From contig DAOUSN010000004.1 of the NCBI GenBank assembly GCA_030627205.1, positions 1,244 through 65,243 on the forward strand: a stretch of DNA of 64,000 bases. Direction: 5' to 3'. The notes under the pieces were generated by a model. That model was not told the origin of the DNA. It searched no databases and saw nothing but the letters and a program-made list of their open reading frames with translations. Positions 1 to 64,000 of this stretch are shown in pieces. Source of the DNA: Methylococcaceae bacterium. GTDB lineage: Bacteria > Pseudomonadota > Gammaproteobacteria > Methylococcales > Methylomonadaceae. How positions within the stretch are numbered: position 1 is the stretch's first letter; each line of letters begins with the position of its first letter. The position numbers and the translations under genes were made by a program.

Positions 1-1491
1 TCTGGTATTCCTTTTTTATCCCATACCACTGAAAAAGGTATTAAATGTTTGGTTGCAGTTAATGGTGGTCTTGTGCCTATTAAACATATTAAAGTTTCAG
101 GAGGAAGGCATTTAGCTGATTATCCTTTATGCAAACCTAAAAATATTATTGGCTATTTACCTAAAACTGAATCGCTACGGGTTACTAATAAAATTAATAT
201 TGATGGTATAAGCATCAGTAAAAAAGGTGCTGTTCCACTATTTTGTCTGGATATTAATATTTTGACTGGCTTAAGTTCAGTTGGTCAATCACAGCTTAAT
301 GAGTTATTAACACAATGTGTGGGAAAAAATACCTCATTATTATTACTGGCAAATAATGAATCATTAAAAAATAAATTATTAGAAGCCGCTAGAAATGATC
401 CACGTTTACAACGTACGGTCGAAATTGCAATCTCACGAATCAATAAAATGGTTCGTAAATTAGAAGCAATTAAGCAAACTATTTTTAAAGATAAAGTGGC
501 TGATGAAGAACCTAAATTATTTATTTCTATGGGAGGAGCCGGGGCAGGTAAAACTGCTGTTGAAGAAATAGCTTACGCCCAATGTGGTAATAATTTTGTG
601 ATTGCTTCATTAGATGAATTTCGTAAACAAAGTGACCTTTACCATGTTTTAACTGCGGCGAATCATCATAGTGATGATTATGTTTATGTTGAACCTTTTG
701 CTAATCTTTTACGTGATTTAGTTGCACAACATGCTAAAGAAAATCGAATTAATATTTTATATGATGGCACGGGAATTCCTTTTATCCCTCGTTATTCGAG
801 CATTGTTGAACAATTTAAGCAGGCGGGGTTTAAATCACAAGTTATTGCTGTGGATGCGTTTATTGTTAAACCTAAAGGTCGTGAACAAGAACTACAACGA
901 CCCGATGTTATTAGTAGTGTTAAATCTCGCTATCAACAAACAAGACGCGCTTTACCGTGGGTTATTACTGTTTATAAACATTTACGAGCTCCGCGTTCAT
1001 TTTTACATGCTATTGAAGAATCATGTTTAGATAAAATTTCGCTGTTTGCTAATGACGGTGAAAAAGATCAACATTATCTCGTTGCTGAAAGTTTTGATGT
1101 CAGCACTAAGGAGGTTGAAATTATACAACAGCAGCAAAAAGATAAAACCTTAGCAATTTATTTGAAACAACAAATAATGACCCGTAATGAATCTATATTA
1201 AAAAATTTAGCACAAAATTGTAAATATAAATTAGTTAAATTAATTGCTCGTAATCCACATTTTGAAGAATTCAATGTTGCCTATCAAGTTTATAGTAATC
1301 GAAATGGTTCGCGAGTTTTATTAATTTATAATACTCGTCGAATGGTTGATTTTGTTGAAAAAAGACAATTAAACTCAAATGCCTCAGGCGAAGAGGGTTT
1401 ACGACATAAAAATGAATCGTTGGCTTTTCATGTTAATCCTAAAAATGAAGAACCGTGGATGATAAGATTACAAGGCTCATCTTTAAAATAA
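1..1491 (+). CDS. C-terminal part of a larger protein with a zeta-toxin-like P-loop kinase domain (5' end outside window)
   Basis: The frame of ORF 49..1491 stays open back to nt 1 (SGIPFLSHTTEKGIKC...), so the listed TTG start is probably internal. Walker A GGAGAGKT followed by ILYDGTG resembles zeta-toxin/AAA_33 kinases. No epsilon-like partner ORF is visible. Confidence 0.55.
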   Translation, partial: SGIPFLSHTTEKGIKCLVAVNGGLVPIKHIKVSGGRHLADYPLCKPKNIIGYLPKTESLRVTNKINIDGISISKKGAVPLFCLDINILTGLSSVGQSQLNELLTQCVGKNTSLLLLANNESLKNKLLEAARNDPRLQRTVEIAISRINKMVRKLEAIKQTIFKDKVADEEPKLFISMGGAGAGKTAVEEIAYAQCGNNFVIASLDEFRKQSDLYHVLTAANHHSDDYVYVEPFANLLRDLVAQHAKENRINILYDGTGIPFIPRYSSIVEQFKQAGFKSQVIAVDAFIVKPKGREQELQRPDVISSVKSRYQQTRRALPWVITVYKHLRAPRSFLHAIEESCLDKISLFANDGEKDQHYLVAESFDVSTKEVEIIQQQQKDKTLAIYLKQQIMTRNESILKNLAQNCKYKLVKLIARNPHFEEFNVAYQVYSNRNGSRVLLIYNTRRMVDFVEKRQLNSNASGEEGLRHKNESLAFHVNPKNEEPWMIRLQGSSLK

Positions 1492-2046
1492 ATCTGATAA
1501 ATCTATTTTAAATTTCTGTAAAAGGGTGACTGTTGTTAATTTATTTTTTATTACTACACTTTGGTAAATTCCATTGATAAGTTTAGAATAACAAATTAAT
1601 CGTTGTTTTTTAACATCTATCACCCACATTTCAGGAATATCAAAATGTGCATACAAAACTGATTTAGTTTTCATATCATAGTTTAAGCTACTATCTGCTA
1701 CCTCAATAATTAGAAAAATATCATCGGCTTTAACATAGCGTTTACGATAAAAATCAGCACGATATTTAACAATTGCAAGGTCAGGTTCAGGTAAGGTATT
1801 TACGTCTAAAAAAATAGAATTTTGTACCCAAATAAGCGCGTTATCTTCTAGTTTTCGATTAAATAAATAAGTTAATTGAGCAATAATACTCGAATGAAAA
1901 AAACCTGTTGGTGACATTTTTAAAATTTTTCCATTAATTAATTCAACTGCCTCGTTTTCTTTTAAAATCCCTATTTTAGCCATTTTAAAATATTCATCAA
2001 TATTAAAAAGTCTGACACGGGGTTCAGATTTAGTTGCTACAATCAT
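1483..2046 (-). CDS. Uma2 (DUF820) family PD-(D/E)xK endonuclease-like protein
   Basis: 187 aa. PEPDLAIV ... IIEVADSS ... K ... IPEMWVID matches the Uma2/DUF820 core. Its ATG overlaps the lspA stop (TAATG, 2044..2048). Confidence 0.8.
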   Translation of the reverse strand: MIVATKSEPRVRLFNIDEYFKMAKIGILKENEAVELINGKILKMSPTGFFHSSIIAQLTYLFNRKLEDNALIWVQNSIFLDVNTLPEPDLAIVKYRADFYRKRYVKADDIFLIIEVADSSLNYDMKTKSVLYAHFDIPEMWVIDVKKQRLICYSKLINGIYQSVVIKNKLTTVTLLQKFKIDLSDLF

Positions 2047-2519: not shown

Positions 2520-5337
2520 ATAATCTCACTTCGCCTGCGCCTGCAATATTTTCAACACAACGACCGCATAATTCAGCATGCTCCGTATGATGACCTACAC
2601 TATCTTCATGATGCCAACAACGTACACATTTTTCATGCGAGGAAGCACTGGCTTTTAATTTCAAGCCCGTTAAATCCGTTTGAATCGTCTCTTCAGGCGC
2701 ATTGCTTAAAGGCTTAATAACCGCACGAGAGGTAATAAAAATAAAATGTAATTCTGGTTCAATCAGTTTCAAATTTGAAAACAAAGCATCATCACAATAC
2801 AATTCCACTTCAGCGTTTAAAGATGAACCAATTTTTCCATCTGAACGTAAAGTTTCTAGTTCTTTGCTAATAATAGTTCGAGTGGCAATGAGGTTATCCC
2901 AAAATTCTGTTGTTAAAGGCTGGTCAGCATCTAACCTAAATAAGCCGTCATACCATGTTTCTAAAAAGATAGACTCAGTACGTTCACCGGGGATATGTTG
3001 CCAAATTTCATCCGCCGTATAACTAATAATAGGCGCAAGCCAACGCGATAAGGCTTCAATGACATGGTAAATCGCGGTTTGTGCTGAACGTCGGGCTAAG
3101 CCATCGGCTTTAGCGGTATATTGGCGATCTTTAATAATATCTAAATAAAACCCGCCTAATTCCATTGCACAAAAATGATGCACTTTTTGATAAATATGCT
3201 GGAATTGATAAGCGTCATAATCGGCTTTAATTTCTGCTTGTAAATGATAGGCTTTATCAATGACCCAACGGTCAAGGGCTAATAAATCATGAGGGGCAAG
3301 TTTATCTTTAACAGGGTCAAAATCATTCAAATTGGATAATAAAAACCGCGAGGTATTGCGTAAACGTCGATAACCATCGGTAGTTTGTTTCAAAATATCC
3401 AAGGAGACATTCATTTCTCCTCGATAATCGGTCGCTGCCACCCATAAACGCAATACATCCGCACCTAGGTTTTTCATTACCGTTTGTGGCGCAATTACAT
3501 TGCCCGCGGATTTAGACATTTTTTTGCCTTTCGCATCCACCGTAAACCCATGAGTGAGTACTTGTTTGTACGGAGCAACGCCATTGATGGCAGTTGAGGT
3601 TAATAATGACGATTGAAACCATCCTCGATGTTGATCTGAACCTTCTAAATATAAATCGGCAGGAAAATTTAAGGCTTCACGACGATTAATCACCGCCTGA
3701 TGAGTGACCCCTGAATCAAACCAAACATCTAGGGTATCGGACATTTTATCGTAATCATCCGCGTCATCGCCTAAGAAATCTGCAACATCGGATGAAAACC
3801 ACGCTTCAATGCCCTTTTCTTCAATTTTCAACGCAACTTCTTCAATTAATTCATCAGTACGCGGATGTAATTCACCTGTTTCTTTATGCATAAAAAAAGG
3901 AATCGGTACGCCCCATGTTCGTTGACGAGAAATACACCAATCAGGGCGACCCTCCATCATTGATTCAATCCGCGCCATCCCCCAATCAGGAATCCATTCG
4001 ACTTTTTTAGCCGCTGCTAACGCCGTTTGCCGCAATTTATTTTTATCCATAGCAATAAACCATTGCGGGGTGGCTCTAAAAATAATTGGGGTTTTATGTC
4101 GCCAACAATGCGGATAACTATGCAATAACGCATGATGATGAATTAACGCGCCTTTTTCTTGCAAAACTTCTAATACATGGTCATTGGCACTAAAAACATG
4201 TTCTCCTGCGAAAAATTCGGTATTCGGTAAAAATACCCCATTATTGCCCACAGGATTATCCACTGGCAAACCATAACGTTGACCCACAATATAATCGTCT
4301 TGACCGTGACCTGGTGCAGTATGTACTACCCCTGTTCCTGCGTCCGTAGTCACATGATCGCCTAAAATAATCGGAACTTGGCGATCATAAAAAGGGTGTT
4401 GTAATAATTGATTTTCGAGTGTCTCCCCTTTGCAATACGCCAATACATGATAATCGTCAATGCTATAACGAAACATCACTTCTTTTAATAAGGCTTCAGC
4501 AATCACTAAACGCTCTTTAATGCCTTCGTTTTCAACTTGTACTACGGCGTATTCTAATTCAGGATTAACCGCAACCGCTTGATTTGCAGGCAATGTCCAC
4601 GGGGTGGTTGTCCAAATAACAACCGATAACGTCCCTTCTCCTTCATGATCTTTAACATGATGGCAACTTTCAATTAATGCGACTGAATTTAACACCTTAA
4701 AACGCACATCAATCGCAGGCGAATGTTTATCTTCATATTCAACTTCCGCTTCCGCTAAAGCCGATCCACAATCCGTACACCAATGCACAGGTTTCGCGCC
4801 TGTTTCAATATGCTTATTCGCATGAATTTTACCCAATGAACGCACAATATCGGCTTCAAATTTATAATCCATCGTTAAGTAAGGATTATCCCACTCGCCC
4901 AAAATACCTAAACGAATGAAAGCCTCTTTTTGTAGTTTGATTTGTTTGGTAGCATATTTTCGACATTCTTTCCGAAAAATTTCAGGGGATACTTTAACCC
5001 CTGCTTTGCCTATTTTTTTCTCAACTTGCAATTCAATCGGCAACCCATGACAATCCCAACCGGGTACATAAGGCGCATCAAATCCCGATAAGGTTTTCGA
5101 TTTAAGAATCATATCTTTAAGAATTTTATTCACCGCATGACCAATATGAATTTCACCATTGGCATAGGGAGGGCCATCATGCAAAATAAATTTTGGACGA
5201 TCGACGGTAAGCTCTCTAATTTGTTGGTATAAGCCCACTTGATTCCATTGCTTTAAACGCATGGGTTCACGTTGAGCTAAATTACCTTTCATTGGAAAAG
5301 CGGTTTTGGGAAGATTGAGCGTTTTTTTGTAATCCAT
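2512..5337 (-). CDS. ileS: Isoleucine--tRNA ligase
   Basis: 941 aa. HIGH motif ([11 protein letters not shown]), KMSKS, and C-terminal Zn-binding cysteines (CVRCWHH...CGRC). Confidence 0.98.
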
Positions 5338-20202: not shown

Positions 20203-21036
20203 ATGAATTTACAAAAATATTTAATTCTTCTACTTTGCTCTTTAGTCTTAACTCAGGGTGTTAATGCCACTGAAGATCAAAGCGTATGGAATAACACACT
20301 TAAAAAAAGCTATTTTGCAAACAAAATTATTATAGAATCCAATTCAATTATTGAATTAGAAACTCCTTATCGTGCGGAAGACCCAGCTTTAGTACCAATA
20401 AAAATTATTAGTAAAATTAAACAAACTACTGATAACTATATTAAAAAAATGACCGTTTTTGTGGATAAAAACCCTTATCCTTTTGTTGGTGAATTTGAAT
20501 TCACCCCTGAGACAGGTAAAGCTGATTTAGCGATGCGTATTAGAGTCAATACTTATAGCTATATTCGTGTTATTGCTGAAACTAATAAAGGCATATTTTA
20601 TATGGCTAAGAAATTTGTTAAGGCAAGTGGAGGTTGTTCTGCTCCCATTGGTGCAGATTTAGATGCTGCAATGAAGCGGTTAGGAAAAATGAAATTTAAA
20701 GTTGATAAAAATCTAAAAACAGGTAAACCATCATTAGTTCAATTACTAATTAGCCACCCTAATATTACTGGAATGCAAATGGATCAAGTAACACGGTTTA
20801 TTAAAAAGTCTCATTTTATGAGAAAATTATTAATTACTTTTAATGATAAACCTGTATTGACAGCAACAACCGATATTGCAATCAGTGCTGATCCCAATTT
20901 TCGTTTTTACTTTATTCCTCAAAAATCAGGAATTTTAACAGCGGAATTTAGTGATACTTCTTGTGAAAGTGCAACAAGTCGTAAAGTTTGTAGCAAAGGA
21001 AAAAGTTATACTCATTCGTATACTGTTGAGCCTTAA
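20203..21036 (+). CDS. Secreted SoxY-SoxZ fusion (SoxYZ-like sulfur-carrier protein)
   Basis: 277 aa with a signal peptide. SoxY-like half ends in VKASGGCSAP (carrier Cys). SoxZ-like half has LISHPNITGMQMD. The architecture resembles the family described as quinoprotein-dehydrogenase-associated SoxYZ-like carrier. Confidence 0.72.
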   Translation: MNLQKYLILLLCSLVLTQGVNATEDQSVWNNTLKKSYFANKIIIESNSIIELETPYRAEDPALVPIKIISKIKQTTDNYIKKMTVFVDKNPYPFVGEFEFTPETGKADLAMRIRVNTYSYIRVIAETNKGIFYMAKKFVKASGGCSAPIGADLDAAMKRLGKMKFKVDKNLKTGKPSLVQLLISHPNITGMQMDQVTRFIKKSHFMRKLLITFNDKPVLTATTDIAISADPNFRFYFIPQKSGILTAEFSDTSCESATSRKVCSKGKSYTHSYTVEP

Positions 21037-21917: not shown

Positions 21918-22934
21918 TTAAAAAGCAGATGTTTTTAGATTAATTAATTCCCTGCACAGCGTTACTATTTCATCAACTTTAATTTCTTTAATTGAATCAT
22001 CCTGTTTATTAAGCTTGTATGGATTAACAATAGAAGAGGATTTAATCACTTTATTGATATGAGTTTGATAAACACGACTAATAGGTGTGCAACCAAATAA
22101 TATAATTGAAGCTTTATTTAAAGCCCATGCTAGATGCGTAGGTCCAGTATCATTACCTAAAATTAAATCCATTTTAGCAATTAATGCTTTTAAATCATTA
22201 AGATTTAATGCTGGTAAAATTTGTACATAATCAGAACGTGCAGCAATCCATTCAGCTTTTTCTTTTTCAGCATAATTACCCCAAATAATTAAAACATTTT
22301 GTTGTAATTGTGTGGCTACTTGCAAAAATTTTTCTTTAGGATAATTACGACTTTCCCAAGTTGAACCAATAACAAAAAGTATATTCTTACTATTTTTTTT
22401 AAGGTATTTTTTTAATAATGGATTATTATCATTAAAATATAAAAAAGATTTTTTTTGATGAATTTGTTCGGGTGTTATTGAAAAACCTAAAGATTTAGAT
22501 AATATTTTTGCATTACGATCAATAGTATTTGTATCATAAGGACTATGAATTTTATTGGTATAAAAGTAAGTCGCTAGTTTTTCTCGAACGGATTTTTTAT
22601 CAAAACCAACGACATTTTTACCTAAAAATTTAGCGGTAACGGCAGATTTTAATAGACCTTGTGCGTCAATTATTAAATCATAGTTATTAGAAGCGGCATA
22701 GCGACGAACTTTTTTAATTTCTTTCCACAGTGCATTTTTTTGATATTTTAAGGATTTTAAATTAACGGTTAAAACTTGATTAATATCAGGGTGATAGTCT
22801 AATATACTTGCAAAACGTTCTTCAACTATCCAGTCAATTTTAATGCTTGGATCATGGGCTTTAATAAATTGCAAAGCAACCATGGCATGAATAATATCAC
22901 CTAAAGCCGATAATTTAACTATCGCTATTTTCAT
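21918..22934 (-). CDS. waaC: Lipopolysaccharide heptosyltransferase I
   Basis: 338 aa. KLSALGDIIH, IDWIVEERFASI and IIDAQGLLKSAV parallel E. coli RfaC blocks. Confidence 0.82.
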   Translation of the reverse strand: MKIAIVKLSALGDIIHAMVALQFIKAHDPSIKIDWIVEERFASILDYHPDINQVLTVNLKSLKYQKNALWKEIKKVRRYAASNNYDLIIDAQGLLKSAVTAKFLGKNVVGFDKKSVREKLATYFYTNKIHSPYDTNTIDRNAKILSKSLGFSITPEQIHQKKSFLYFNDNNPLLKKYLKKNSKNILFVIGSTWESRNYPKEKFLQVATQLQQNVLIIWGNYAEKEKAEWIAARSDYVQILPALNLNDLKALIAKMDLILGNDTGPTHLAWALNKASIILFGCTPISRVYQTHINKVIKSSSIVNPYKLNKQDDSIKEIKVDEIVTLCRELINLKTSAF

Positions 22935-24980: not shown

Positions 24981-26570
24981 TTAATAATCATGCTGATAGT
25001 CACCAATAATATCTAAAGTTTGGTCATAAAAAGCCGTTTTAGTTTCCATCAATCCTAAAAGTGTATGAAAAATATTATCATGTGAATAAGCATTGGACGC
25101 TGATTTTTTTAACCCATTAATATCAATTTTATAGCCTTCACCAAACCACATCAGAGCAGCTACATGTTTTTGTTCTTTAGGAGCCATAAAATAAGGAAGC
25201 CCATGTAAATATAAACCTTTTTCACCCAAAGATTCTCCATGATCGCTGATATAAAACATCGCTGTTTCAAATTTAACCGTATTTTGTTTTAATAAAGTAA
25301 TCACTTTTGATAAAAAATAATCTGTATATAAAATAGTATTATCATAGGCATTATTAATTTCTTCAGTACTACATTGCTCTAATTGATTGGTTTTACAGGC
25401 AGGGGTAAATTTTTCAAAACTTTTTGGGTAACGTTTATAATAAGCAGGTCCATGACTTCCCATTTGATGGAGAACAATTAATATATCTTTATTTGAGGTT
25501 TTATCAATATGCGTTTGTAAGCCCTTTAACATTCCTTCATCACGACATTCTGGTTCACAGATAGTATTGGTGTCAGCCGTTTTATAGTCCTCATAAGGCA
25601 CTCTTAGCGCCACTCCTTTTGAGTCAGAATTATTATCCCGCCACAAAATACTTGCTCCCGCATGTTGTAATATATCTAATACATTTTCAGTAGATTTAGC
25701 TATATTTGCATCATAGTCTTCTCGTCCAAGATGTGAAAAAAGGCAAGGAACAGAAGTTGCTGTTGAAGTACCACAAGAATACATATTAGGTAAATTAATA
25801 ATATTTTCTTTTTTTAACAAAGGATTGGTTTCACGGTGATAACCATTTAGTGAAAATCTATCTGCTCGTGCAGTTTCCCCAACTACTAAAATAATTAATT
25901 CTCTATCATTATCACCTAAAGCAGTATGGGCATTTTGACTTATTTTTTTAAAAGCTAGTTCTTTTCCTCTGGTTAATCTAGTAATATATTGCCCTGTTGC
26001 ATATAAATAATACAAAGGATTAGTATAATACCGAATAGGTTTATGCTCTCTAACAAATGATAAATAAGCTTTGCTAAAGGTAAAAAACATAATAACTAAA
26101 ATAATTAATACCGTTGATATTACTTTTAATTTATGAATTAAATTTATTTTTAAAGTGTAATAGTTAACCTCCACTTTAAAGATAAAAATAGTAGGAAGTA
26201 ATCCTAAGAAAAATAAATAACCAAGCAACTTTAAACTAAATAAATCTAAAGATTCATTTAAATTAGTTTCAATAATATTTTGAATCATATTATCATCAAT
26301 AACTAAATGATAACTATCCATAAAGTAACTACTTAATGAAGAGATTATAAATAAGCTGATAATAATTGCTTTCAAAGTTTTTTTTGAACTTAAAAGCGTT
26401 AACAATAAAACAATAAAACAAAATAGAGCAATAGTTAACGAACCGATAAAACCAATAGTTTTCCAAGAAAATGGATAACTATCTAAAATGGCTTTGAAAA
26501 AAGATTGGTTATAAAAAACTACTAAAAAAAATGAACTAATACAAATTAATTTAAATGGTGTAAACCGCAT
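24981..26570 (-). CDS. eptA: Phosphoethanolamine--lipid A transferase (EptA/MCR family)
   Basis: 529 aa with five N-terminal TM helices and a sulfatase-like domain. Motifs YSCGTSTATSVPCLFS, HQMGSHGPAYYKRYP and SDHGESLGE. Confidence 0.85.
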   Translation of the reverse strand: MRFTPFKLICISSFFLVVFYNQSFFKAILDSYPFSWKTIGFIGSLTIALFCFIVLLLTLLSSKKTLKAIIISLFIISSLSSYFMDSYHLVIDDNMIQNIIETNLNESLDLFSLKLLGYLFFLGLLPTIFIFKVEVNYYTLKINLIHKLKVISTVLIILVIMFFTFSKAYLSFVREHKPIRYYTNPLYYLYATGQYITRLTRGKELAFKKISQNAHTALGDNDRELIILVVGETARADRFSLNGYHRETNPLLKKENIINLPNMYSCGTSTATSVPCLFSHLGREDYDANIAKSTENVLDILQHAGASILWRDNNSDSKGVALRVPYEDYKTADTNTICEPECRDEGMLKGLQTHIDKTSNKDILIVLHQMGSHGPAYYKRYPKSFEKFTPACKTNQLEQCSTEEINNAYDNTILYTDYFLSKVITLLKQNTVKFETAMFYISDHGESLGEKGLYLHGLPYFMAPKEQKHVAALMWFGEGYKIDINGLKKSASNAYSHDNIFHTLLGLMETKTAFYDQTLDIIGDYQHDY

Positions 26571-26760: not shown

Positions 26761-26837
26761 TGGTGTCCCCGACAGGAATCGAACCTGTAACCTGCTCCTT
26801 AGGAGGGAGCCGCGCTATCCTGTTGTGCCACGGAGAC
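26761..26837 (-). tRNA. tRNA-Arg (anticodon CCU)
   Basis: Reverse complement reads GTCTCCG TG GCAC..., anticodon arm GCTCC-CTCCTAA-GGAGC, T-arm GGTTCGATTCC, acceptor CGGGGAC-A-CCA. 77 nt. The 3' half is close to E. coli argW. Confidence 0.92.
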
Positions 26838-35602: not shown

Positions 35603-35715
35603 GGCGGAAACCATGCCAGCTACATCTCGGCACACGAATCTGCTGCTACCGTTGCTTCCTTCCAGATCTGGCGGAGTTTACAGCGTATCGTTGCGAGAGA
35701 ACCGACACAGTTACC
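35603..35715 (-). ncRNA. ffs: Signal recognition particle RNA (4.5S RNA)
   Basis: The reverse complement aligns by eye with E. coli 4.5S RNA: GGTTCTCTCGCAACG...CCAGATCTGGAAGGAAGCA...GTGTGCCGAGATGTAGCTGGCA. A terminal helix AACTGTGTC/GGCATGGTT is possible. Ends are approximate (a few nt). Confidence 0.85.
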
Positions 35716-55601: not shown

Positions 55602-57347
55602 TTAATACACATCTCTTACATAACGTTTTTCTTTCTTCAAAAGATTAACATAATCAATCGCTTCTTGTTCGGTTTTTTGACCCTGTTCCGTAACAATATC
55701 ATGTAGTGCTTTATCAACATCTTTTGCCATTCGATAAGCATCCCCACAGACAAAGAAAGAACCACCTTGTTCTAACCATAAAAATATTTCTTTTCCCTGT
55801 TCACGCATTCTATCTTGAACATAAATTTTTTCGTCTTGGTCACGAGAAAAAGCTAACTCTAAACGGTTTAATACCCCGTTTTTTTGCATAGCCTCCAATT
55901 CATCTTGATAAATAAAGTCGGTCTCTGCATTTCTATCCCCAAAAAACAACCAATTTTGACCCGAGGATTTTCTAAATTCACGTTCTTGTAAAAAAGCACG
56001 GAAAGGCGCAATCCCAGTTCCAGGCCCAACCATAATCATCGGCAAACTATCATCTTCAGGAACTCTAAAATTTTTATTGGGGGCAAAAAAGACCTTAACC
56101 GCAGTACTTTCACCGACAATATCCGCTAAATAAGTGGAGCAAACCCCTTTATGTTCCCGTCTTTGAGCTTGATAACGCACACTAGCAACGGTTAAATGAA
56201 CCTTGTCAGGGTACATTTTTCCACTGGAAGCAATGGAATAAGCACGATATTTTAGCGGTTTTAAGCGAGCAATAAATTCAGCCGCAGAAAATTTTAAGGT
56301 TGGATGCGCTAATAATAAATCTAAACTATCCCGTCCCCATAAATAATCAGTCAACTGGTTTTTATCATCAGAGTTTAAAAGTTCATTTAATACTTGATCC
56401 CCTGAACGTTTGGCAATTTCTTCAATCAATTCTTTGCTAGGCAATTTAATTTCAAAATGAGTACGTAAGGCTTCACGCAAGCTCATTAATTCACCCTTAA
56501 CGGGTTCTTCTTCGTCCCCCTTACAACTGATGGCTTTAATAATATTATCTACTAATTCAGGACAATTAGTAGGAATAACACATAATGCATCCCCTGCTTC
56601 ATAGCTTAAACCTGAACCAACAATAGAAATTTCATAATGACGGGTTTCTTTGGATGAATTCTCAGCCGTAATAATTTTATTCAGCGTCATCGTCGCTGGA
56701 AAGGGGTTTTTTCGATTATATTGCGGCTTATTATTTACTGAAGATTCCTTATCTTTATCCATTAAATTAACGGTTGACCCCTCAGACATCAGTGGAATAA
56801 CACTACTAATCCAATTTTCCGCTGAAACTTCAAAATCGACATCACAATCAATGCGCTGATACAGTCGTTTTGCCCCTAATGCTTCAAGACGCAAATCCCA
56901 ATCTATCCCTGCTTGACAAAATAAATCATAACTCGTATCCCCTAAGGCTAAAATGGAATAATGAGTATTTTCAAAATGAGGGGTATTTTCGCTATTAACC
57001 GCTTCCCAGAGCATTTGAGCATTATCAGGCATTTCGCCTTCACCATAAGTACTGGTGATAATAAGTAGATAATCCATGACTGCCATTTCAGCTATTTCCA
57101 CTTCATCCATACTTTTAACAATAGGATTTAAGCCGTGTGTTTTAGCAAGATCAGCTGCATCATTCGCAACCGATTCAGACGTGCCTGTTTGCGTTCCATA
57201 GAGAATGTTAATAACACGTGCATGGGCTGTTTGATTTACCCCCGTACTTTGTAATAAGTGGCTATGCATTCCTGCAAAAAATCCTGTGAGCCATGCGCGT
57301 TGCGTATCAGAATAAGGGGCGTTATTTGGAATTTTCAGTATTTTCAT
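55602..57347 (-). CDS. cysJ: Sulfite reductase [NADPH] flavoprotein alpha-component-like diflavin reductase
   Basis: 581 aa. N-terminal TQRAWLTGFFAG (as in E. coli CysJ TQLAWVSGYFWG), flavodoxin ILYGTQTGTSE, FAD motif YRAYSIASS, and NADPH motif MVGPGTGIAPFRAF. No cysI nearby. Confidence 0.85.
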   Translation of the reverse strand: MKILKIPNNAPYSDTQRAWLTGFFAGMHSHLLQSTGVNQTAHARVINILYGTQTGTSESVANDAADLAKTHGLNPIVKSMDEVEIAEMAVMDYLLIITSTYGEGEMPDNAQMLWEAVNSENTPHFENTHYSILALGDTSYDLFCQAGIDWDLRLEALGAKRLYQRIDCDVDFEVSAENWISSVIPLMSEGSTVNLMDKDKESSVNNKPQYNRKNPFPATMTLNKIITAENSSKETRHYEISIVGSGLSYEAGDALCVIPTNCPELVDNIIKAISCKGDEEEPVKGELMSLREALRTHFEIKLPSKELIEEIAKRSGDQVLNELLNSDDKNQLTDYLWGRDSLDLLLAHPTLKFSAAEFIARLKPLKYRAYSIASSGKMYPDKVHLTVASVRYQAQRREHKGVCSTYLADIVGESTAVKVFFAPNKNFRVPEDDSLPMIMVGPGTGIAPFRAFLQEREFRKSSGQNWLFFGDRNAETDFIYQDELEAMQKNGVLNRLELAFSRDQDEKIYVQDRMREQGKEIFLWLEQGGSFFVCGDAYRMAKDVDKALHDIVTEQGQKTEQEAIDYVNLLKKEKRYVRDVY

Positions 57348-57411
57348 TGAAGGCTAATAATTTAAAATGAGATAGTTTTCTATTTGTTTTAGGTAGGTCA
57401 TAATTTTTTTA

Positions 57412-58077
57412 TTATGTAGACTCAAGGTAAGTCTGATTAATAAAACCCTCCTTGATTCTTTCAAAAACTAAGTCCATTAACAATGTTACTAATTTTGCAG
57501 CTCTAGTTATATCATTTGTCGTTACTAAAATAGAATTTTGTCCATGAGCAATATTATTTCTGATTTTTAAAAGGAATTTATCAAGTTCATCTTTTAAAGA
57601 GTATTTAGGTTCAGGGTATTCTTGAATCTTTTCAAGGTTAAATTCTGCTAATATTTTATTAAGAATAGCAAAGCCAACATTACTTTCAGTATTTACAATA
57701 GGGTTAATATTAATTTTTTCAGCATGATAAAATTGATTAAGTTGTTTAAAAAAAAGTAGCTTTTTATCTAATTTTTTAGGATATTCTGCAAATTGTTTAA
57801 ATTTATTTTCTAAATGAAAAATAATCATGGGTTTGCAAAGAGTATCAAAGCTAAGTTCTAGTTTATTTAATGTCCTAATGTAAATTTGAAAAGTTTGCTG
57901 AATAAATCCTTCCCAGATTGAATAAATCATAGGGATTGAATGTTGTAACAGTAAATCTTTATCGTAGTCTAAAAGATTATAACGTGAGGTGAGTGTTTTA
58001 ATACTCGATATTGAGCTTAGTCTTGTGTCTATATCAGAAGTAATTTCTTGCTCTAAAAGAACTAACGCTGTATTCAT
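57412..58077 (-). CDS. HEPN-domain protein, MAE_28990/MAE_18760-like (predicted RNase)
   Basis: 221 aa, all-helical. IWEGF near the N-terminus and a C-terminal R-x4-H motif RNNIAH (R173..H178, nt 57544..57561). Its ATG overlaps the upstream stop (ATGA). Confidence 0.72.
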   Translation of the reverse strand: MNTALVLLEQEITSDIDTRLSSISSIKTLTSRYNLLDYDKDLLLQHSIPMIYSIWEGFIQQTFQIYIRTLNKLELSFDTLCKPMIIFHLENKFKQFAEYPKKLDKKLLFFKQLNQFYHAEKININPIVNTESNVGFAILNKILAEFNLEKIQEYPEPKYSLKDELDKFLLKIRNNIAHGQNSILVTTNDITRAAKLVTLLMDLVFERIKEGFINQTYLEST

Positions 58078-59156
58078 TGGTTTCCAAATATTTTACGAGC
58101 GATTTTTATACGATCAATTATTCTCCCTTTTTGCCCATTACTACTTGATGTTTTGATAACATTAATAATTTCTTTTTGATGACGATCAATTTTTTCCTGA
58201 ATTAACGTTATTGGTTTGTCTTTATAAAAATCATAATATTCACTGACACCAATAGTCACAATATCATAAATAGTGGTTATTATTCGTCCTTTTCTATCTT
58301 TACTCCGAAAAATACTCTTACTTAAAGGCTGTAATAACTTAAATGTCTTTATAAAAATAGATTCATATTTTTCATAATCAAACTCTTTATTTTCCAACGC
58401 ATGTTTCATGAAATCAGTCATATGTTGAGCAAGCCCAGTTTTTATATTATCTTTATTGTTATAAAGAGAAATAAACCTAAGTGCTAATTCTTCATGATAA
58501 AGTTGTTCTAAATTATTATCATTTAAATCAATTAGTTCGAGAAAATCTTTATTCTCAGAAATATGTTTTAAAAAATCATTAAAATCACTGGAAATATCTC
58601 TATAAATACAATTTCTAATTTCTTGTGCAGTTAAAGGTGAACCGCCTGTATTGAGTCGATTAAATAATTCAAATCGCATATCATAGTTACTATTCCACCT
58701 AAGAATCTCAACTCGGCAAGTTGATCTTTTGATATTTAATTTAAAGACATTAGGTAGTGTTTCATAAGAAAATCCTTCTAGGGTTTTAATTTTATTTCCT
58801 GCGCCTAAAACCCAATTATTTTTTTCTTTAATCCCTTTATCTTCACTTTTTAAAATACCAAAAAAAGAAAGCACAGTTGAGGTTCGTTGTAAACCATCCA
58901 CTAATTCCCATACACCATCACCATCTGAGGCAACAAAAATAGGAGGAATGGGAATACCTAAAAGAATTGATTCAATAAAACGTGTTTGCTGCTCTTCATC
59001 CCAGCGAAAATAACGTTGAAAATCTGGTTTAATTTTAATCTCTTCACGCTCATACATACTCATCAATTCGCCAAAAGAAATATCTAATCTATCCGTGCTT
59101 AATAAATTTCTTTGCGCTTCTATTTCCGTCTGTAATTCTTCTTTTGTTGCTAACAT
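58074..59156 (-). CDS. DUF262 (ParB/sulfiredoxin-like, GmrSD N-terminal type) protein without a DUF1524 nuclease domain
   Basis: 360 aa. FQRYFRW followed by ELVDGLQRT (DGLQR = nt 58884..58898). The C-terminal half is helical with no His-Me/HNH motif. GGAGAA RBS at 59161..59166. Confidence 0.82.
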   Translation of the reverse strand: MLATKEELQTEIEAQRNLLSTDRLDISFGELMSMYEREEIKIKPDFQRYFRWDEEQQTRFIESILLGIPIPPIFVASDGDGVWELVDGLQRTSTVLSFFGILKSEDKGIKEKNNWVLGAGNKIKTLEGFSYETLPNVFKLNIKRSTCRVEILRWNSNYDMRFELFNRLNTGGSPLTAQEIRNCIYRDISSDFNDFLKHISENKDFLELIDLNDNNLEQLYHEELALRFISLYNNKDNIKTGLAQHMTDFMKHALENKEFDYEKYESIFIKTFKLLQPLSKSIFRSKDRKGRIITTIYDIVTIGVSEYYDFYKDKPITLIQEKIDRHQKEIINVIKTSSSNGQKGRIIDRIKIARKIFGNQ

Positions 59157-59177
59157 TTATTTCTCCAATAAACAAAA

Positions 59178-62100
59178 TTACGCAGTCATCATCGCTTGGA
59201 CAATTTCCAAACTTACATGACTAGCCAAATATTCATCAATAGACGTTAAGCCCGCTAATGCCTTACGATTAATGTTATCTTGTTCGATAATCCAAGCAGT
59301 TGAACCAATGGAATTAATACTTTGTACATCACGGTTTATTAATGTCATTTTATAATCCGTTAGCCGTTTTGCTGCAAGTAAGGATGCCAGTTGTTCATCA
59401 TTATAATTACTGTAGGCTTCACGGATACTTTTAACTAACACGTCTTGCAATTTGCGCGGTCTTTCAATGATTAATTTAAACACATCATCTGTTAATTTTT
59501 CAGCAAGATCTATTACGGCAAAACTATTAATCAATTTAAAACTTAATTCGGTATCAATATCACCATAAATGGGAACTGCCCCATTAAATAAGGGTTTATT
59601 CCTTTGATGCGCTTGCTTAACGTCTGCAATTTGTTGTTGAGCGAAAGCAATTGATAATTCTTCTATCATCGCTTTACGTTCCATGGTTTGTTGTAAAAAA
59701 CTGGCTGTTTGCGTTTTATATAACCATAACGGCACTGCAAATTTAAAATAACCACGTTCTATTAACCAATTTTCCAATAAAGCCTTTGCTTTTTCAGAAT
59801 TTGTATACTCAAAATGCTGCGTTAGCATCGCTAAAATAAATTGTTCATGGGCTTTAGAGGTTTCTGTTTCTTCCGTTAAACAACGAATTTCTACCGAAGT
59901 TTTATCATACACCTCTTTTAACCGATTATCAGGGTCGTATTGATACGCATTCCCGCCCGACATCCCCGTGCAAAAACCCTTACCAAATCCGCCTAAATTA
60001 AGCACCGACCCATTAATCATGTATTCGCAACCAAAATCACCGACCCCTTCAATAACTGCCATTGCGCCTGAATTTCGTACTGCAAACCGATCGCCACCTT
60101 CCCCATTAATAAAGGCTTGACCCCCCGATGCCCCAAATAAAGCAAAATTACCAATTAAAACATTTTCACCTGATTTTATCGTACCACCGCCGGGTGATTT
60201 GACAATAACCGTCCCGCCACACATGGTTTTACCGACCCCATCGTTACACGTTCCCGTATGCTCCAAACGCATGCCATCATTTAAAAAAGCCGCATAACTT
60301 TGTCCTGCTGACCCTGTGGTGCGAATAATAACGCTATCAGGGGCAAAATAATGTCGCCCATGTTGATTAGTATAAATAATCGGGGAAGTTGCTCGTTGTT
60401 CATCCGTCAATTCATATTGCAATAAACGTTCAATATCAATAGCCGTTTGTCCTCCCACGGTTTTATTCAAATTATTTAATTTAAACTTCTTACCTTCAAT
60501 AATAAGCTGCGATTGATTTTTCTTAATCAAACTGTTTTTAACTTGCTCAATAATTAAGTCATCAATTGAAAAATTAGCTTCTAAATAAATCGGTTTGTCA
60601 ACTTTTAAGACCTCAACTTGCGCTAATAAATCGGTAAAATCTAATTGTCCCACCATCGTAGGATGATTAATAAGGTGTAATAAATCCGTTTGACCTCGAA
60701 TAGCGGTTAAACTTTGATAGCCTAAATCCGCTAAAATTTCACGGACTTCATGGGCTAAATTCATGAAATATTGCGCTAAAACACGGGCATCGCCTTTAAA
60801 TTCTTCATGAGCCGTGGTTAATCCAGCGGGGCATTTTACATTACAATTTTTTGCCATCACACAACGAAGCATCATTAATGCGGTCGTACCAAATTCAAAT
60901 GAATCCGCTCCCATAATAGCTGATTTCACCACATCTAAACCGCTTTGATGCGCTGCACTGCAACGTAAAATAACTTTATCACGCAATCCATTCACCACTA
61001 AGGCTTGATGAACTTCTGCAATTCCAATTTCAGGCGAGCGGCCTGTATGTTTTAAACTAGTAACCGCAGCCGCTCCTGTTCCGCCTGAATTTCCTGCCAC
61101 ATTAATAACATCTGCGCCTGCTTTTGCAACCCCCACCGCAATTGTTCCAATGCCTTCGGAAGACACTAATTTAACCACTACTTTAACCCGTGCGGCTTTG
61201 GCATCATGAATTAATTGCCCTAAATCTTCAATAGAATAAGTATCATGGTGCGGCGGCGGACTGACTAATTCAACTTTCGGCGTTCCACCCCGTAATGAGG
61301 CAATTTCAACCGAAACTTTCATCGCAGGTAATTGACCACCCTCCCCCGGTTTTGCCCCTTGAGCAATTTTTATTTCAATTTCTTCACAATTAGAATCGGC
61401 CAAATAACCTGCCCAAACCCCAAAACGACCTGAAGCAAATTGTTTGATTTTACTAGATTTTAACGTTCCAAAACGACTAGAATGTTCGCCGCCTTCGCCT
61501 GAATTACTTAATGCACCCGCAATATTTGTTCCCATTGCAACCGCTTCATGCGCTTCTGATAATAACGCCCCATGACTCATTGCACCCGTCGCTAAAGTTG
61601 CGATAATTTCATGAGCAGGTTGAACTCTATTTAATTCAATCGCATCGGGGGCGGTTTTAAGGGTACTTAAATAATTAGTTAATAATTCATTATGCAATAA
61701 TTCATTATGGGATAAATGATTATCAATGCAGGTTAAATTAATGGATTCTCTATCAAGGGTGGCTTTAAAACTTGCTGCCTCAAACCGATTTTCAAAATGA
61801 TTTAATAATTCATACAACCGTGATTCTGTATTATTCGTCGTAAAGGTAATTTGGAAACCCGTTCTTATCACGCGAACACTTAAACCCCGAATTAAATAAT
61901 TATTATTACCGCGTAAATTTTGCTTATTTAAAATAACATCAAAATCGTCCCTTGTATTCGCTGTAGAAATATCGGCAGGGAAATCAATAACATCACGCAA
62001 TGCCGCTGGGCGAGAATCACGTTCTAAATATAAATTTTTAATAAAACTACGATAAGCAGGCGTAACACCAAATGCATCAATTTGTGCTGGCGTGCGTTTT

Positions 62101-64000
62101 TGATAACCAAAATCGGTATAAGCCGTATCACTCGCAACGCTTGATTGTTGCTGAGGAATATATAAAATAGCTTCATCGGTCATTTTAATATATTCTCGCA
62201 CAGAAACATTACCAAAGCTATGTCCTGCCCCTTCTTGACGTTCTTTAAACAAACCTAAAAAAGGAATGTCTTTTTCATCAGTTATGCCTAAAGATTTGTG
62301 ATGCCATTCCGTCGCACTCGCCGCGAGATCAGCATATTGAACGCCTCCTACAGAAGCATGAATATTAGGAAAATAACCGTTTAATTTCGGTTCATTGGTA
62401 TCTAAATAATTCGATTCAAAAAATTCACCTCCAATATAACTTTCAGCGGTACATAAACCAAATTTCCCCATGATTTTCATCAAAGATTTAGTCACCCCTG
62501 CTTGAAAATTATCCAAAGCCTGCTGTTGGGTTTGCTCATCTTGATACTGCGTCATTACTCGATTATGAACACTTAAAGGACAAATGGCTGAAGCTCCAAA
62601 ACCTAAAATAGTCGCCACATCATGTGGACTCGCTGCTTGCCCTGTTTCGATAATTAACGACGAATTAAAACGCAACCCCTGTGTTACTAAGCGTTGATTC
62701 GCGGCCGAAATCATTAATAAAGCAGGAATGGCCGCTTTTTCAAGACTAATATTTTTATCACTTAAAATGATAATCCCAATATTATCCCGTGCCGCTTGTG
62801 CAATTTGATTACAAACCTCTAATAACGCTTGTTCTAATTGCTGCTCATTCGCCTTTTTATGGTCATAATTAGGGCTATATAGCATGGCTAAAGTAACCAC
62901 ACCGACGGCTTGTTGTTGATAAATTTGGGCTAATTGAGTGCGTTGCAAAACAGGAGAATCAATGACTAATTGTTGAGAATTACCCCCCGAAAAATTCGGT
63001 TTAGCCCCTAAAGCAACCCGTAAAGTCATGCCGTCACTTTCACGCAAAGAATCTAAGGGTGGATTAGTTACTTGAGCAAATCGCTGACTAAAATAACGTG
63101 ACATCCCGCCTTCTGCTTTTGATAATGCGTTAGGCGTAATCCCATAACCCATTGCTGAAACTTTCTCTAAACCCACTTGTAACATAGGGTCAAGTAAGAA
63201 CTTAAAACTTTCTTGATTTAAGGAATAAGCCGTGTGTTGCTGTTCAATGCTAAAATCGTGCTGATTATCAATAGTTGATAATTGAACTTTATCTAATTCG
63301 GATAAATGAATACAACTTTCAGCCAATAATTTTTTATAATCTTGTTTAGAGGCTAACTGTGTCATCACTTCATGGCTGTTATAAGACCGCTGCGTTTCAT
63401 GGTCAAAATATAACATCCCACCCGCTTCAATACGCCCTCGTTTTAAGACTTGTTCAGGCGGAAAATCAATTTGCCCTGCTTCCGACATTACAACCAGATA
63501 ATCATCCGTTTCAATCGAACGCAAAGGACGTAAACCTAAGCGATCTAAACGCGCACCCACACGAATACCATCATTAAAAATTAATGCCGCTGGCCCATCA
63601 TTTTTTTCTTCGTAAAGACTAAAATATTCCAACATGGCACGAACATCTTCAGATAAAGAAGTATCGTTTTCCCACGCAGGCGGCATCATCGCTAAAACAG
63701 CCGTCACAATATCTAACCCATCTTCATTAATACGACGGGTTAACGTTTGATCTAAACGCCCTGAATCGGATTGCCCTTTAGGAAAAACAAGGGATTTATT
63801 ATGATGGCTAGCAATGGCCTTTTCACTCAACCTATTTTTTTTATCCGTATTTAATTCACCATTATGTGACATATAACGAAATGGCTGTGCCATCATCGTT
63901 GCAGGTTTAGTATTTGTTGAAAAACGGGTATGGAAAAATAAGGTACTAATTTCGTGATCTGTATCGTATAGATCTATAAAATAAGGGACTACTTCATTCG
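59178..64000 (-). CDS. gltB: Glutamate synthase large subunit, atypically long (5' end outside window)
   Basis: The frame is open to nt 64000 (…HTRFSTNTKPATMMAQPFRYMSHNGELNT). FMN-domain blocks GAMSHGAL, SNSGEGGE, IKQFASGRFGV and KIAQGAKPGEGGQLP are present, as is SPPPHHDTYSIEDL. Cluster motif CVMAKNCNVKC and a C-terminal GXGXG beta-helix region. Confidence 0.93.
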   Translation of the reverse strand, partial: NEVVPYFIDLYDTDHEISTLFFHTRFSTNTKPATMMAQPFRYMSHNGELNTDKKNRLSEKAIASHHNKSLVFPKGQSDSGRLDQTLTRRINEDGLDIVTAVLAMMPPAWENDTSLSEDVRAMLEYFSLYEEKNDGPAALIFNDGIRVGARLDRLGLRPLRSIETDDYLVVMSEAGQIDFPPEQVLKRGRIEAGGMLYFDHETQRSYNSHEVMTQLASKQDYKKLLAESCIHLSELDKVQLSTIDNQHDFSIEQQHTAYSLNQESFKFLLDPMLQVGLEKVSAMGYGITPNALSKAEGGMSRYFSQRFAQVTNPPLDSLRESDGMTLRVALGAKPNFSGGNSQQLVIDSPVLQRTQLAQIYQQQAVGVVTLAMLYSPNYDHKKANEQQLEQALLEVCNQIAQAARDNIGIIILSDKNISLEKAAIPALLMISAANQRLVTQGLRFNSSLIIETGQAASPHDVATILGFGASAICPLSVHNRVMTQYQDEQTQQQALDNFQAGVTKSLMKIMGKFGLCTAESYIGGEFFESNYLDTNEPKLNGYFPNIHASVGGVQYADLAASATEWHHKSLGITDEKDIPFLGLFKERQEGAGHSFGNVSVREYIKMTDEAILYIPQQQSSVASDTAYTDFGYQKRTPAQIDAFGVTPAYRSFIKNLYLERDSRPAALRDVIDFPADISTANTRDDFDVILNKQNLRGNNNYLIRGLSVRVIRTGFQITFTTNNTESRLYELLNHFENRFEAASFKATLDRESINLTCIDNHLSHNELLHNELLTNYLSTLKTAPDAIELNRVQPAHEIIATLATGAMSHGALLSEAHEAVAMGTNIAGALSNSGEGGEHSSRFGTLKSSKIKQFASGRFGVWAGYLADSNCEEIEIKIAQGAKPGEGGQLPAMKVSVEIASLRGGTPKVELVSPPPHHDTYSIEDLGQLIHDAKAARVKVVVKLVSSEGIGTIAVGVAKAGADVINVAGNSGGTGAAAVTSLKHTGRSPEIGIAEVHQALVVNGLRDKVILRCSAAHQSGLDVVKSAIMGADSFEFGTTALMMLRCVMAKNCNVKCPAGLTTAHEEFKGDARVLAQYFMNLAHEVREILADLGYQSLTAIRGQTDLLHLINHPTMVGQLDFTDLLAQVEVLKVDKPIYLEANFSIDDLIIEQVKNSLIKKNQSQLIIEGKKFKLNNLNKTVGGQTAIDIERLLQYELTDEQRATSPIIYTNQHGRHYFAPDSVIIRTTGSAGQSYAAFLNDGMRLEHTGTCNDGVGKTMCGGTVIVKSPGGGTIKSGENVLIGNFALFGASGGQAFINGEGGDRFAVRNSGAMAVIEGVGDFGCEYMINGSVLNLGGFGKGFCTGMSGGNAYQYDPDNRLKEVYDKTSVEIRCLTEETETSKAHEQFILAMLTQHFEYTNSEKAKALLENWLIERGYFKFAVPLWLYKTQTASFLQQTMERKAMIEELSIAFAQQQIADVKQAHQRNKPLFNGAVPIYGDIDTELSFKLINSFAVIDLAEKLTDDVFKLIIERPRKLQDVLVKSIREAYSNYNDEQLASLLAAKRLTDYKMTLINRDVQSINSIGSTAWIIEQDNINRKALAGLTSIDEYLASHVSLEIVQAMMTA
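61681..61710. repeat. 15-nt tandem duplication inside gltB
   Basis: AATAATTCATTATGC / AATAATTCATTATGG (14/15 identical). On the coding strand it encodes HNELL-HNELL. Confidence 0.85.

Follow-up and report, generated by a model that had tools for sequence, protein, structure and literature searches.

We analyzed 64,000 nucleotides (nt) of DNA from a Methylococcaceae bacterium (contig DAOUSN010000004.1 of assembly GCA_030627205.1; hereafter the window), in which two minus-strand genes lie between a gltB-like and a cysJ-like gene. The first open reading frame (ORF), ORF1 (58074..59156), encodes a DUF262 protein of 360 amino acids (aa), and the second, ORF2 (57412..58077), encodes a HEPN protein of 221 aa. 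The stop codon of ORF1 and the start codon of ORF2 overlap in an ATGA (58074..58077, minus strand), read directly in the sequence, which indicates that the two genes are translationally coupled. On the same strand, a 21-nt spacer (59157..59177) with a GGAG placed 8 nt before the ORF1 ATG separates the pair from the gltB stop codon, and an AT-rich spacer of 64 nt (57348..57411) separates it from the ATG of the cysJ-like gene. The ORF coordinates and lengths, the overlap, and both gaps are exactly those given in a preliminary description of this DNA, which was made from the sequence alone.

Both neighboring genes run in the same direction as the pair. The upstream gene is gltB-like (glutamate synthase large subunit; 59178..64000, minus strand) and is clipped by the end of the window; on the matching JGI metagenome contig Ga0326323_10000004 its full length is 1803 aa, and the window therefore cuts the gene. 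The downstream gene (55602..57347, minus strand) encodes a CysJ-like diflavin reductase that is conserved beside the gltB-like gene and is not necessarily a subunit of sulfite reductase. The preliminary labels gltB and cysJ stand with these two qualifications. A consensus scan found no terminator-like hairpin in either spacer of the pair, as had been noted by eye; the sole strong terminator on the minus strand follows the cysJ-like gene (55568-55536) and has a 14-bp stem and a T-run. Consensus matches to an own promoter of the pair numbered 23, as against 18.7 +/- 4 in shuffled sequence, and were thus not enriched, and the 21-nt spacer showed neither a promoter nor a terminator signal. Given the absence of a terminator from the spacers and of any promoter excess, the pair is therefore embedded in a co-directional unit that extends from gltB to cysJ.

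Domains and motifs of the two proteins

ORF1 matches the Pfam family PF03235 (GmrSD_N/DUF262) at 1.6e-26. The three DUF262 motifs, QRYFRW at residues 47-52 (QRxxxW), DGLQR at 87-91 (DGxQR), and FNRLN at 165-169 (FxxxN), are all invariant among 40 homologs. No DUF1524/His-Me or other nuclease domain was matched in ORF1 by Pfam, and DUF1524 was not matched in ORF2 either. The best PADLOC model for ORF1 is NsnA (1.3e-58, model positions 40-379 of 385), and PD-T4-2_A also matches (1.4e-50, model positions 41-361 of 363). Because both matches run nearly end to end, ORF1 has the two-domain build of NsnA, which has been described as a ParB-DUF262 domain followed by a helical C-terminal "ParBDB" domain (PMC12065111). 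ORF1 thus consists of an N-terminal ParB/Srx-like DUF262 nucleoside triphosphatase (NTPase) domain and an alpha-helical C-terminal domain of the NsnA-C/"ParBDB" type, and it is the predicted sensor of the pair.

ORF2 passes two Pfam models of the HEPN group: PF18737 (HEPN_MAE_28990; 4.7e-26, 92.7 bits against a cut-off of 26.8) and PF18735 (HEPN_RiboL-PSP; 3.2e-23, 83.1 bits against a cut-off of 28.4). It carries RNNIAH at residues 173-178, an Rx4H motif, and IWEGF at 54-58. Across 42 homologs, with identities down to 28%, residues R173, N174, H178, W55, E56, and G57 are invariant. The AlphaFold2 (AF2) model of ORF2 is all-alpha with 7 helices and has a predicted local distance difference test score (pLDDT) of 91.7; its top match in BFVD is a phage MAE_28990/MAE_18760-like HEPN (TM 0.64-0.67, probability 1.0). 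From these features, ORF2 is a standalone HEPN of the MAE_28990/RiboL-PSP clade and is predicted to act as an RNase effector or toxin. The profiles agree with the domains first assigned by inspection (DUF262 without DUF1524 in ORF1, HEPN in ORF2), and the motifs and residue numbers then reported (FQRYFRW at 46-52, DGLQR at 87-91, IWEGF at 54-58, and RNNIAH at 173-178) are correct.

A homopolymer of eight T within ORF2 (T8; 57748..57755, minus strand) is one T shorter (T7) in a sister metagenome-assembled genome (MAG), GCA_030949405.1. There the HEPN gene is frameshifted and encodes 127 aa (L010:9080-9463), and the DUF262 gene is intact, its product being 99% identical to ORF1 of the window. 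In four other independent assemblies the ORF2 gene has T8 and is intact. The T7 variant is either a homopolymer assembly error or a genuine frameshift through which the toxin gene is inactivated or undergoes phase variation.

Acquisition and distribution of the gene pair

The G+C content is 26.8% in ORF2 and 29.1% in ORF1, as compared with 38-39% in gltB and cysJ. Relative to 50 long ORFs of the window (mean 35.2 +/- 3.0%), this corresponds to z = -2.8 for ORF2 and -2.0 for ORF1. The dip that had been seen in hand counts of single lines is therefore real, but it is milder than those counts implied, and the G+C content of third codon positions (GC3) in the pair is not outlying (z = -1.1 and -1.3).

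Empty sites were sought by querying species-representative genomes with the CysJ-like protein, which returned 80 loci, mostly from Methylococcaceae. The gltB-like gene leads straight into the cysJ-like gene, across a gap of 9-130 nt, in about 65 of these 80 related species, and homologs of ORF1 or ORF2 are absent from this junction in all 80. The pair is fixed in all 7 contigs that encode an identical CysJ-like protein, and in the population to which the window belongs it is fixed and intact in four independent assemblies. ORF1 is 63-68% identical to proteins from cyanobacteria and Bacteroidota, whereas the flanking CysJ-like protein is only about 50% identical outside the family or across orders; transfer between phyla is therefore indicated. 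Horizontal acquisition of the pair into a co-directional housekeeping unit, proposed in the preliminary description, is thus supported by comparison of the sequences.

In related species, other cargo occupies this junction or lies close to it. In the closest one (83% identity of the CysJ-like protein; L014:2344-4225), an ATPase and nuclease pair of the PD-T4-4/PDC-M47 type lies exactly at the junction, with PADLOC scores of 1.6e-207 and 4.4e-52. Another methanotroph (L061:3542-4979) has an Mrr_cat-type endonuclease and a PemK/MazF module there, and a third species (L062:3723-4933) has DarT1 and a NADAR antitoxin just upstream of the cysJ-like gene; in this third case the gene preceding DarT1-NADAR is of the gltD type, not the long gltB. 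Given this variety of defense and toxin-antitoxin (TA) cargo, the gltB|cysJ junction therefore appears to be a small insertion hotspot. No integrase or transposase was found with the window cassette, the search for flanking repeats or target-site duplications returned only AT-rich chance matches, and the termini of independent insertions share no common motif. We infer that cassettes are most simply explained as being exchanged by recombination between the conserved flanking sequences. As an integrase-free hotspot for defense and TA genes, the gltB-like|cysJ-like junction of Methylococcaceae would be a convenient natural system in which to study cassette exchange.

In the spacer comparison, only the last ~25 nt of the window's right spacer resemble the spacer of the closest relative. 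Native gltB|cysJ spacers (loci L015-L026, around locus positions 4900-5000) are 67-96 nt long and mostly contain a GC-rich hairpin, which is absent from the window's right spacer. The hairpin is followed by a T-run in some relatives (L018, L020) and is missing where cargo has been inserted; it might be a terminator, an attenuator, or an insertion target. The flanking genes have features of their own. The long gltB-like gene encodes an extension of ~230 aa past the GXGXG domain, and its pairing with the CysJ-like gene spans Methylococcaceae, Porticoccaceae, Rhodococcus, Rhizobiales, and Flavicella (loci L015-L093), with an ordinary gltD-type small-subunit gene also nearby in some of these genomes (L051, L054, L062). 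The gltB-like protein and the diflavin reductase look like a conserved functional pair, in which the reductase may stand in place of GltD.

Beyond this junction, the ORF2 family comprises 110 close clusters, mostly from cyanobacteria, and a profile of the family retrieved 1,936 representative clusters (50% identity) at E <= 1e-3, nearly all of them standalone proteins of 205-230 aa. We examined the coupling of the two genes in 80 metagenome loci found with the HEPN profile, of which 69 were testable, having at least 900 nt of upstream sequence. A DUF262 gene lies directly upstream on the same strand in 69 of 69, mostly overlapping, with a median gap of -2 nt between the end of the first gene (A) and the start of the second (B). 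The recurrent adjacency of the two families that had been anticipated is therefore borne out.

The pair occurs in many settings. It lies after mnmG in Microcoleus and between gyrA and serC both in Methylovulum psychrotolerans (L011:8001-9744) and on a second methanotroph contig (L101:2917-4663), with spacers of 10-30 nt upstream and 27-55 nt downstream in the gyrA|serC insertions, in which a conserved array of housekeeping genes has again received the cassette. An E. coli IncF plasmid carries it (9 of 5,426 genomes), as do an Enterobacter Col plasmid, plasmids of Psychrobacter and Bacillus cereus, in which it lies beside BsuBI/PstI restriction-modification (R-M) genes, and the variable region of a P2-like coliphage. 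The plasmid carriers include a 5.7-kb Col plasmid, and the plasmid copies lie close to replication or partition genes; NCBI annotates the plasmid genes as "MAE_28990/MAE_18760 family HEPN-like nuclease" beside "DUF262 domain-containing protein." A tblastn search with ORF1 matched 146 plasmids and 23 phages, and the same search with ORF2 matched 2 plasmid records and no phage record. The few matches of ORF2 show fast divergence of B rather than its absence, and B, as judged from these comparisons, diverges much faster than A. This divergence explains why no B protein matches any PADLOC model; ORF2 itself has no PADLOC match even at E <= 10. Viral carriage of the HEPN subfamily of ORF2 was seen in only one IMG/VR contig.

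In a census of 105 nearest-neighbor ORFs from 34 nonredundant loci, the neighbors are mostly housekeeping genes (glpX, hemA, purK, bioB, GNATs, gyrA), and N6_Mtase accounts for 2 of the 105. In most cases, then, the pair stands alone and lies outside defense islands. At one Microcoleus locus (L005:8694-11268), it is followed by a GDSL lipase gene, an AAA_15/AAA_21 ATPase gene, and a 146-aa ORF; the last two may be a second defense module of the PD-T4-4/Gabija-like ATPase type. Cyanobacterial copies of the pair have a common upstream block containing "gatataat," which may be a promoter of their own; the window copy does not have this block.

Proposed function and alternative explanations

An experimentally studied system with the same gene order is PD-T4-2, which was isolated from E. 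coli ECOR65 and recorded as "DUF262, HEPN" (Vassallo et al. 2022, PMC9519451). HHpred assigned its A protein to PF03235 and its B protein to PF18735 (97.8%) and PF18737 (96.9%). The system protects E. coli K-12 from T4, and its deletion sensitizes native ECOR65 to the phage (PMC9519451). With this precedent, we consider it probable that the window pair is a PD-T4-2-like module directed against phages or mobile elements, acquired at a hotspot, in which a DUF262 sensor licenses a HEPN RNase. The preliminary description had likewise proposed a GmrSD-like sensor with a HEPN effector in trans and a defense or abortive role, and this is still the best reading.

In this scheme, the pair would be expressed by read-through from gltB, and ORF1 and ORF2 would be made in fixed proportion via translational coupling. 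ORF1, a putative DUF262 NTPase sensor with a C-terminal helical domain of DNA-binding type, would probably keep ORF2 inactive by forming a complex with it. When it meets and binds invading DNA, which may be modified, as for other DUF262 proteins, ORF1 would bind or hydrolyze NTP and change state, and would thereby license ORF2. The site of ORF2 formed by R173, N174, and H178 would probably be completed by dimerization, and the active enzyme would cut cellular or phage RNA and so stop the infection, probably at a cost to growth. The direction from sensor to effector, the trigger, the RNA that is cut, and the abortive outcome are the parts of this scheme that we infer. A pair this compact would be a tractable model for the control of a HEPN RNase by a DUF262 NTPase.

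Several observations weigh against the proposed defense function. The AF2 model of ORF1 is only moderately confident (pLDDT 76.6), and its best folds in the PDB (SspE, CTP-ParB, the N-terminal domain of pNOB8 ParB, BrxU, and DndI) all have weak scores. The ORF2 model has no significant fold match in the PDB (none at E < 0.6; HepT-type HEPN toxins top the list at E ~0.6), and a PDB sequence search gave nothing significant for either protein. Homology between ORF2 and PD-T4-2B is undetectable beyond some 20-40 columns at the catalytic helix. Enrichment in defense islands is not supported, R-M genes being present in only 2-3 of the 34 census loci. The available text of PMC9519451 contains no statement on whether PD-T4-2 acts through abortive infection, and a literature search found no experimental study of an MAE_28990-type HEPN, the term "MAE_28990" appearing, among the papers searched, only in PMC3710099.

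The main competing explanation is that the pair is a selfish TA or addiction module, comparable to the MNT-HEPN or ParA/Soj-HEPN dyads, in which the HEPN protein acts constitutively as an RNase toxin, with the DUF262 protein as its cognate antitoxin, the two together stabilizing the module or its replicon instead of sensing phage. We regard this as rather unlikely, although it is compatible with a role in defense and was proposed for related HEPN dyads by Anantharaman et al. (2013, PMC3710099). The antitoxin-first order with an ATGA overlap would be expected of such a module, as would a HEPN that never occurs without an upstream DUF262 gene (69/69), a pair that typically stands alone among housekeeping genes with no mobility genes, and plasmid carriage close to replication or partition genes, including that on the 5.7-kb Col plasmid. 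Classical TA cargo (PemK and DarT1-NADAR) is also present at this junction or immediately upstream of it, and in the sister MAG GCA_030949405.1 a frameshift may have removed the toxin but left DUF262 in place. That frameshift, however, may be an assembly error, since the gene is intact in the four other assemblies, and ORF1 is unlike typical antitoxins: it is an NTPase of 360 aa and two domains whose catalytic motifs are invariant. Moreover, its homolog PD-T4-2A belongs to a system that blocks T4, in the native strain as well.

A type IV restriction-like activity, with the DUF262/ParB-like protein itself cutting or nicking modified phage DNA and the HEPN as an accessory or regulatory protein, strikes us as improbable. 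This explanation draws on the name "ParB nuclease" given to the partner by Anantharaman et al. (PMC3710099), on the role of DUF262 as the half of GmrSD, BrxU, and SspE that senses modified DNA, on the selection of PD-T4-2 with T4, a phage with modified DNA, and on the BsuBI/PstI R-M genes that adjoin the pair on two plasmids. Against it, ORF1 has no detectable DUF1524/His-Me or other nuclease domain. The HEPN Rx4H is invariant, a plasmid encoding "PD-T4-2B H127A" (pCV23) appears in the plasmid list of PMC9519451, and four motif mutants, which the text does not name individually, are said there to lose protection. Together, Rx4H invariance and the loss of protection in motif mutants point to the HEPN as catalytically required.

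It is slightly less probable again that the DUF262 and MAE_28990-HEPN cassette promotes its own spread or retention, either by a ParB-type action at intergenic hairpins, in a homing-like manner, or by addiction. Bare two-gene cassettes are found in housekeeping arrays at gltB|cysJ and gyrA|serC and beside mnmG, glpX, hemA, and purK. If self-spread were the correct explanation, junctions of the gltB|cysJ type would be operon-internal hotspots in which cassettes replace one another.

We give very little credence to the idea that the pair represents the Menshen system (NsnABC) in remnant or minimal form, to which the top PADLOC score of ORF1 for NsnA (1.3e-58) would otherwise point. Neither an NsnB ATPase nor an NsnC effector is encoded at the window locus, where the flanking genes are gltB and cysJ, and the HEPN partner is strictly conserved. 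Furthermore, all HEPN-partnered DUF262 proteins, including those of the plasmids and the P2-like phage, score higher with NsnA than with PD-T4-2_A, and the NsnA score therefore reflects the breadth of the model. Finally, a native origin of the two genes, as accessory or regulatory parts of a gltB-cysJ nitrogen/sulfur assimilation unit, is scarcely credible and was rejected on the evidence of the empty sites: although they are co-directional with that unit, are read through from gltB with no intervening terminator, and are fixed in all 7 contigs with an identical CysJ-like protein, they are present at the junction in 0 of 80 related species (gltB leads directly to the cysJ-like gene in ~65), recur in unrelated contexts (gyrA|serC, after mnmG, plasmids, phage), and are atypical in composition.

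Elsewhere in the window, a gene for a Uma2-family putative restriction endonuclease (1483-2046, minus strand; PF05685, 4.8e-28) has a G+C content of 27.3% (z = -2.6), as low as that of the pair, and may be another acquired gene. A fused SoxY-SoxZ gene (20203-21036, plus strand), low-GC lipopolysaccharide genes on the minus strand (21918-22934 and 24981-26570; a heptosyltransferase and an EptA-type phosphoethanolamine transferase), tRNA-Arg(CCU) (26761-26837, minus strand), and a small signal recognition particle RNA (35611-35707, minus strand) are all ordinary in appearance.

Comparison with known systems

The preliminary description had supposed that the pairing of DUF262 with HEPN was without experimental characterization, which proved incorrect: the association was published in 2013 (PMC3710099), and PD-T4-2 was validated against T4 in 2022 (PMC9519451). 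Its narrower statement, that the MAE_28990 clade is defined only computationally, agrees with our literature search, which yielded no experimental paper on the subfamily, and with the lack of detectable homology between ORF2 and PD-T4-2B outside the catalytic helix. The window pair thus adds little that is new in kind for defense biology, because the DUF262 and HEPN architecture was predicted in 2013 and validated in 2022. In reviews, PD-T4-2 is grouped with DUF262 systems that have no DUF1524 and whose mechanism is uncharacterized.

For a direct comparison, PD-T4-2 was located through the 50-nt lambda-red homology arm in Table S8 of Vassallo et al.; DNA-similarity searches starting from the E. 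coli plasmid pair or the Enterobacter plasmid gene returned plasmid copies only, or nothing, and did not reach it. PD-T4-2 is rare: of 5,426 complete E. coli genomes, 17 carry it, in every case chromosomally. In E. coli 2009C-3133 (L174:3623-8845), it occupies the variable slot between psu and the integrase gene of a P4-like satellite (psu, delta/ogr, integrase) at ssrA, with an A protein of 364 aa and a B protein of 167 aa. NCBI starts the A gene so that it is 33 nt longer than in Vassallo et al. and labels B "HEPN domain-containing protein."

The A proteins are clearly related. ORF1 and PD-T4-2A are 28% identical over 345 aa (BLASTP, E 9e-41), both are about 360 aa long, and they have the same DGLQR, QRxxxW, and FxxxN motifs. 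The B proteins are comparable in arrangement: both are placed in PF18735/PF18737 and both combine a W/E motif, located in an early helix, with an RNxxAH near the C-terminus. In each pair, co-directional A-then-B genes encode a DUF262 protein followed directly by a small standalone HEPN, and both pairs are horizontally mobile hotspot cargo. The sequences of the B proteins, however, barely align. BLASTP of ORF2 against PD-T4-2B gave E 0.40, with only "...LK..L..RNxxAH" aligned, which places H178 of ORF2 opposite H127, the residue mutated in pCV23. An hhalign comparison of the ORF2-family profile with the PD-T4-2B sequence gave E 0.037, and a profile-profile comparison with 31 PD-T4-2B relatives gave a probability of 3.6% and E 0.012 over 41 columns at RNxxAH. 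At the resolution of these methods, ORF2 and PD-T4-2B belong to different HEPN subfamilies. Since ORF2 is not detectably homologous to PD-T4-2B, the phenotype of protection against T4, which the literature reports for PD-T4-2 only, carries over to the window pair by architecture only. The two systems differ in other respects as well: PD-T4-2B has 167 aa and ORF2 221 aa, PD-T4-2 rides a P4-like satellite whereas no mobility genes accompany the window copy, which lies inside a housekeeping unit, and the window pair is not called by PADLOC.

Other two-gene and DUF262 systems are more distant. Menshen (NsnABC; Millman 2022; Li et al. 2025) has in common with the window pair the NsnA architecture and the proposed sensor role of DUF262, but it uses an NsnB ABC-type ATPase as transducer and an NsnC inPIN nuclease as effector, whereas the HEPN is the only partner of ORF1; with NsnB and NsnC absent and a HEPN gene followed by the cysJ-like gene in their place, this assignment was rejected. 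GmrSD, BrxU, and SspE have the same N-terminal NTP-binding DUF262 module with DGxQR, and the structural search with the ORF1 model ranked SspE and BrxU near the top. Those enzymes carry a DUF1524 His-Me nuclease, which the window pair has neither fused nor adjacent, its separate HEPN presumably targeting RNA, and a GmrSD-type enzyme was rejected for want of DUF1524. MNT-HEPN (HepT/MntA) is likewise a two-gene module in which a small HEPN Rx4-6H RNase comes second, but the partner is a minimal nucleotidyltransferase, not a DUF262 NTPase, and the HEPN subfamily differs. The "Ishtar" HEPN anti-plasmid system and DARNA were ruled out, as they have different HEPN families and architectures.

The pairing had been described by Anantharaman, Makarova, Burroughs, Koonin and Aravind (2013, PMC3710099), whose Table 1 gives "in operon with ParB" for HEPNs of the MAE_28990 and RiboL-PSP types. 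The pairing of families is the same as in the window, where ORF2 passes both Pfam models and ORF1 belongs to the ParB superfamily. That description is purely computational, and it mentions associated DNA methylase genes, which are found neither at the window locus nor at most of the loci that we examined. Because MAE_28990-type HEPNs are missed by the PADLOC models, annotation pipelines therefore under-call the DUF262 and HEPN system. Sensor A is conserved, whereas effector B has diverged so far that it can no longer be recognized; Menshen has been reported to show this same turnover of effectors. Judged from its sequence relationships, the window pair is a ParB/DUF262 and MAE_28990-type HEPN operon and thus a member of the large, computationally described sister of PD-T4-2. 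The small PD-T4-2B family comprises 33 clusters at 90% identity, and the MAE_28990-type partner, with ~1,900 clusters at 50% identity, is far more widespread than this studied branch.

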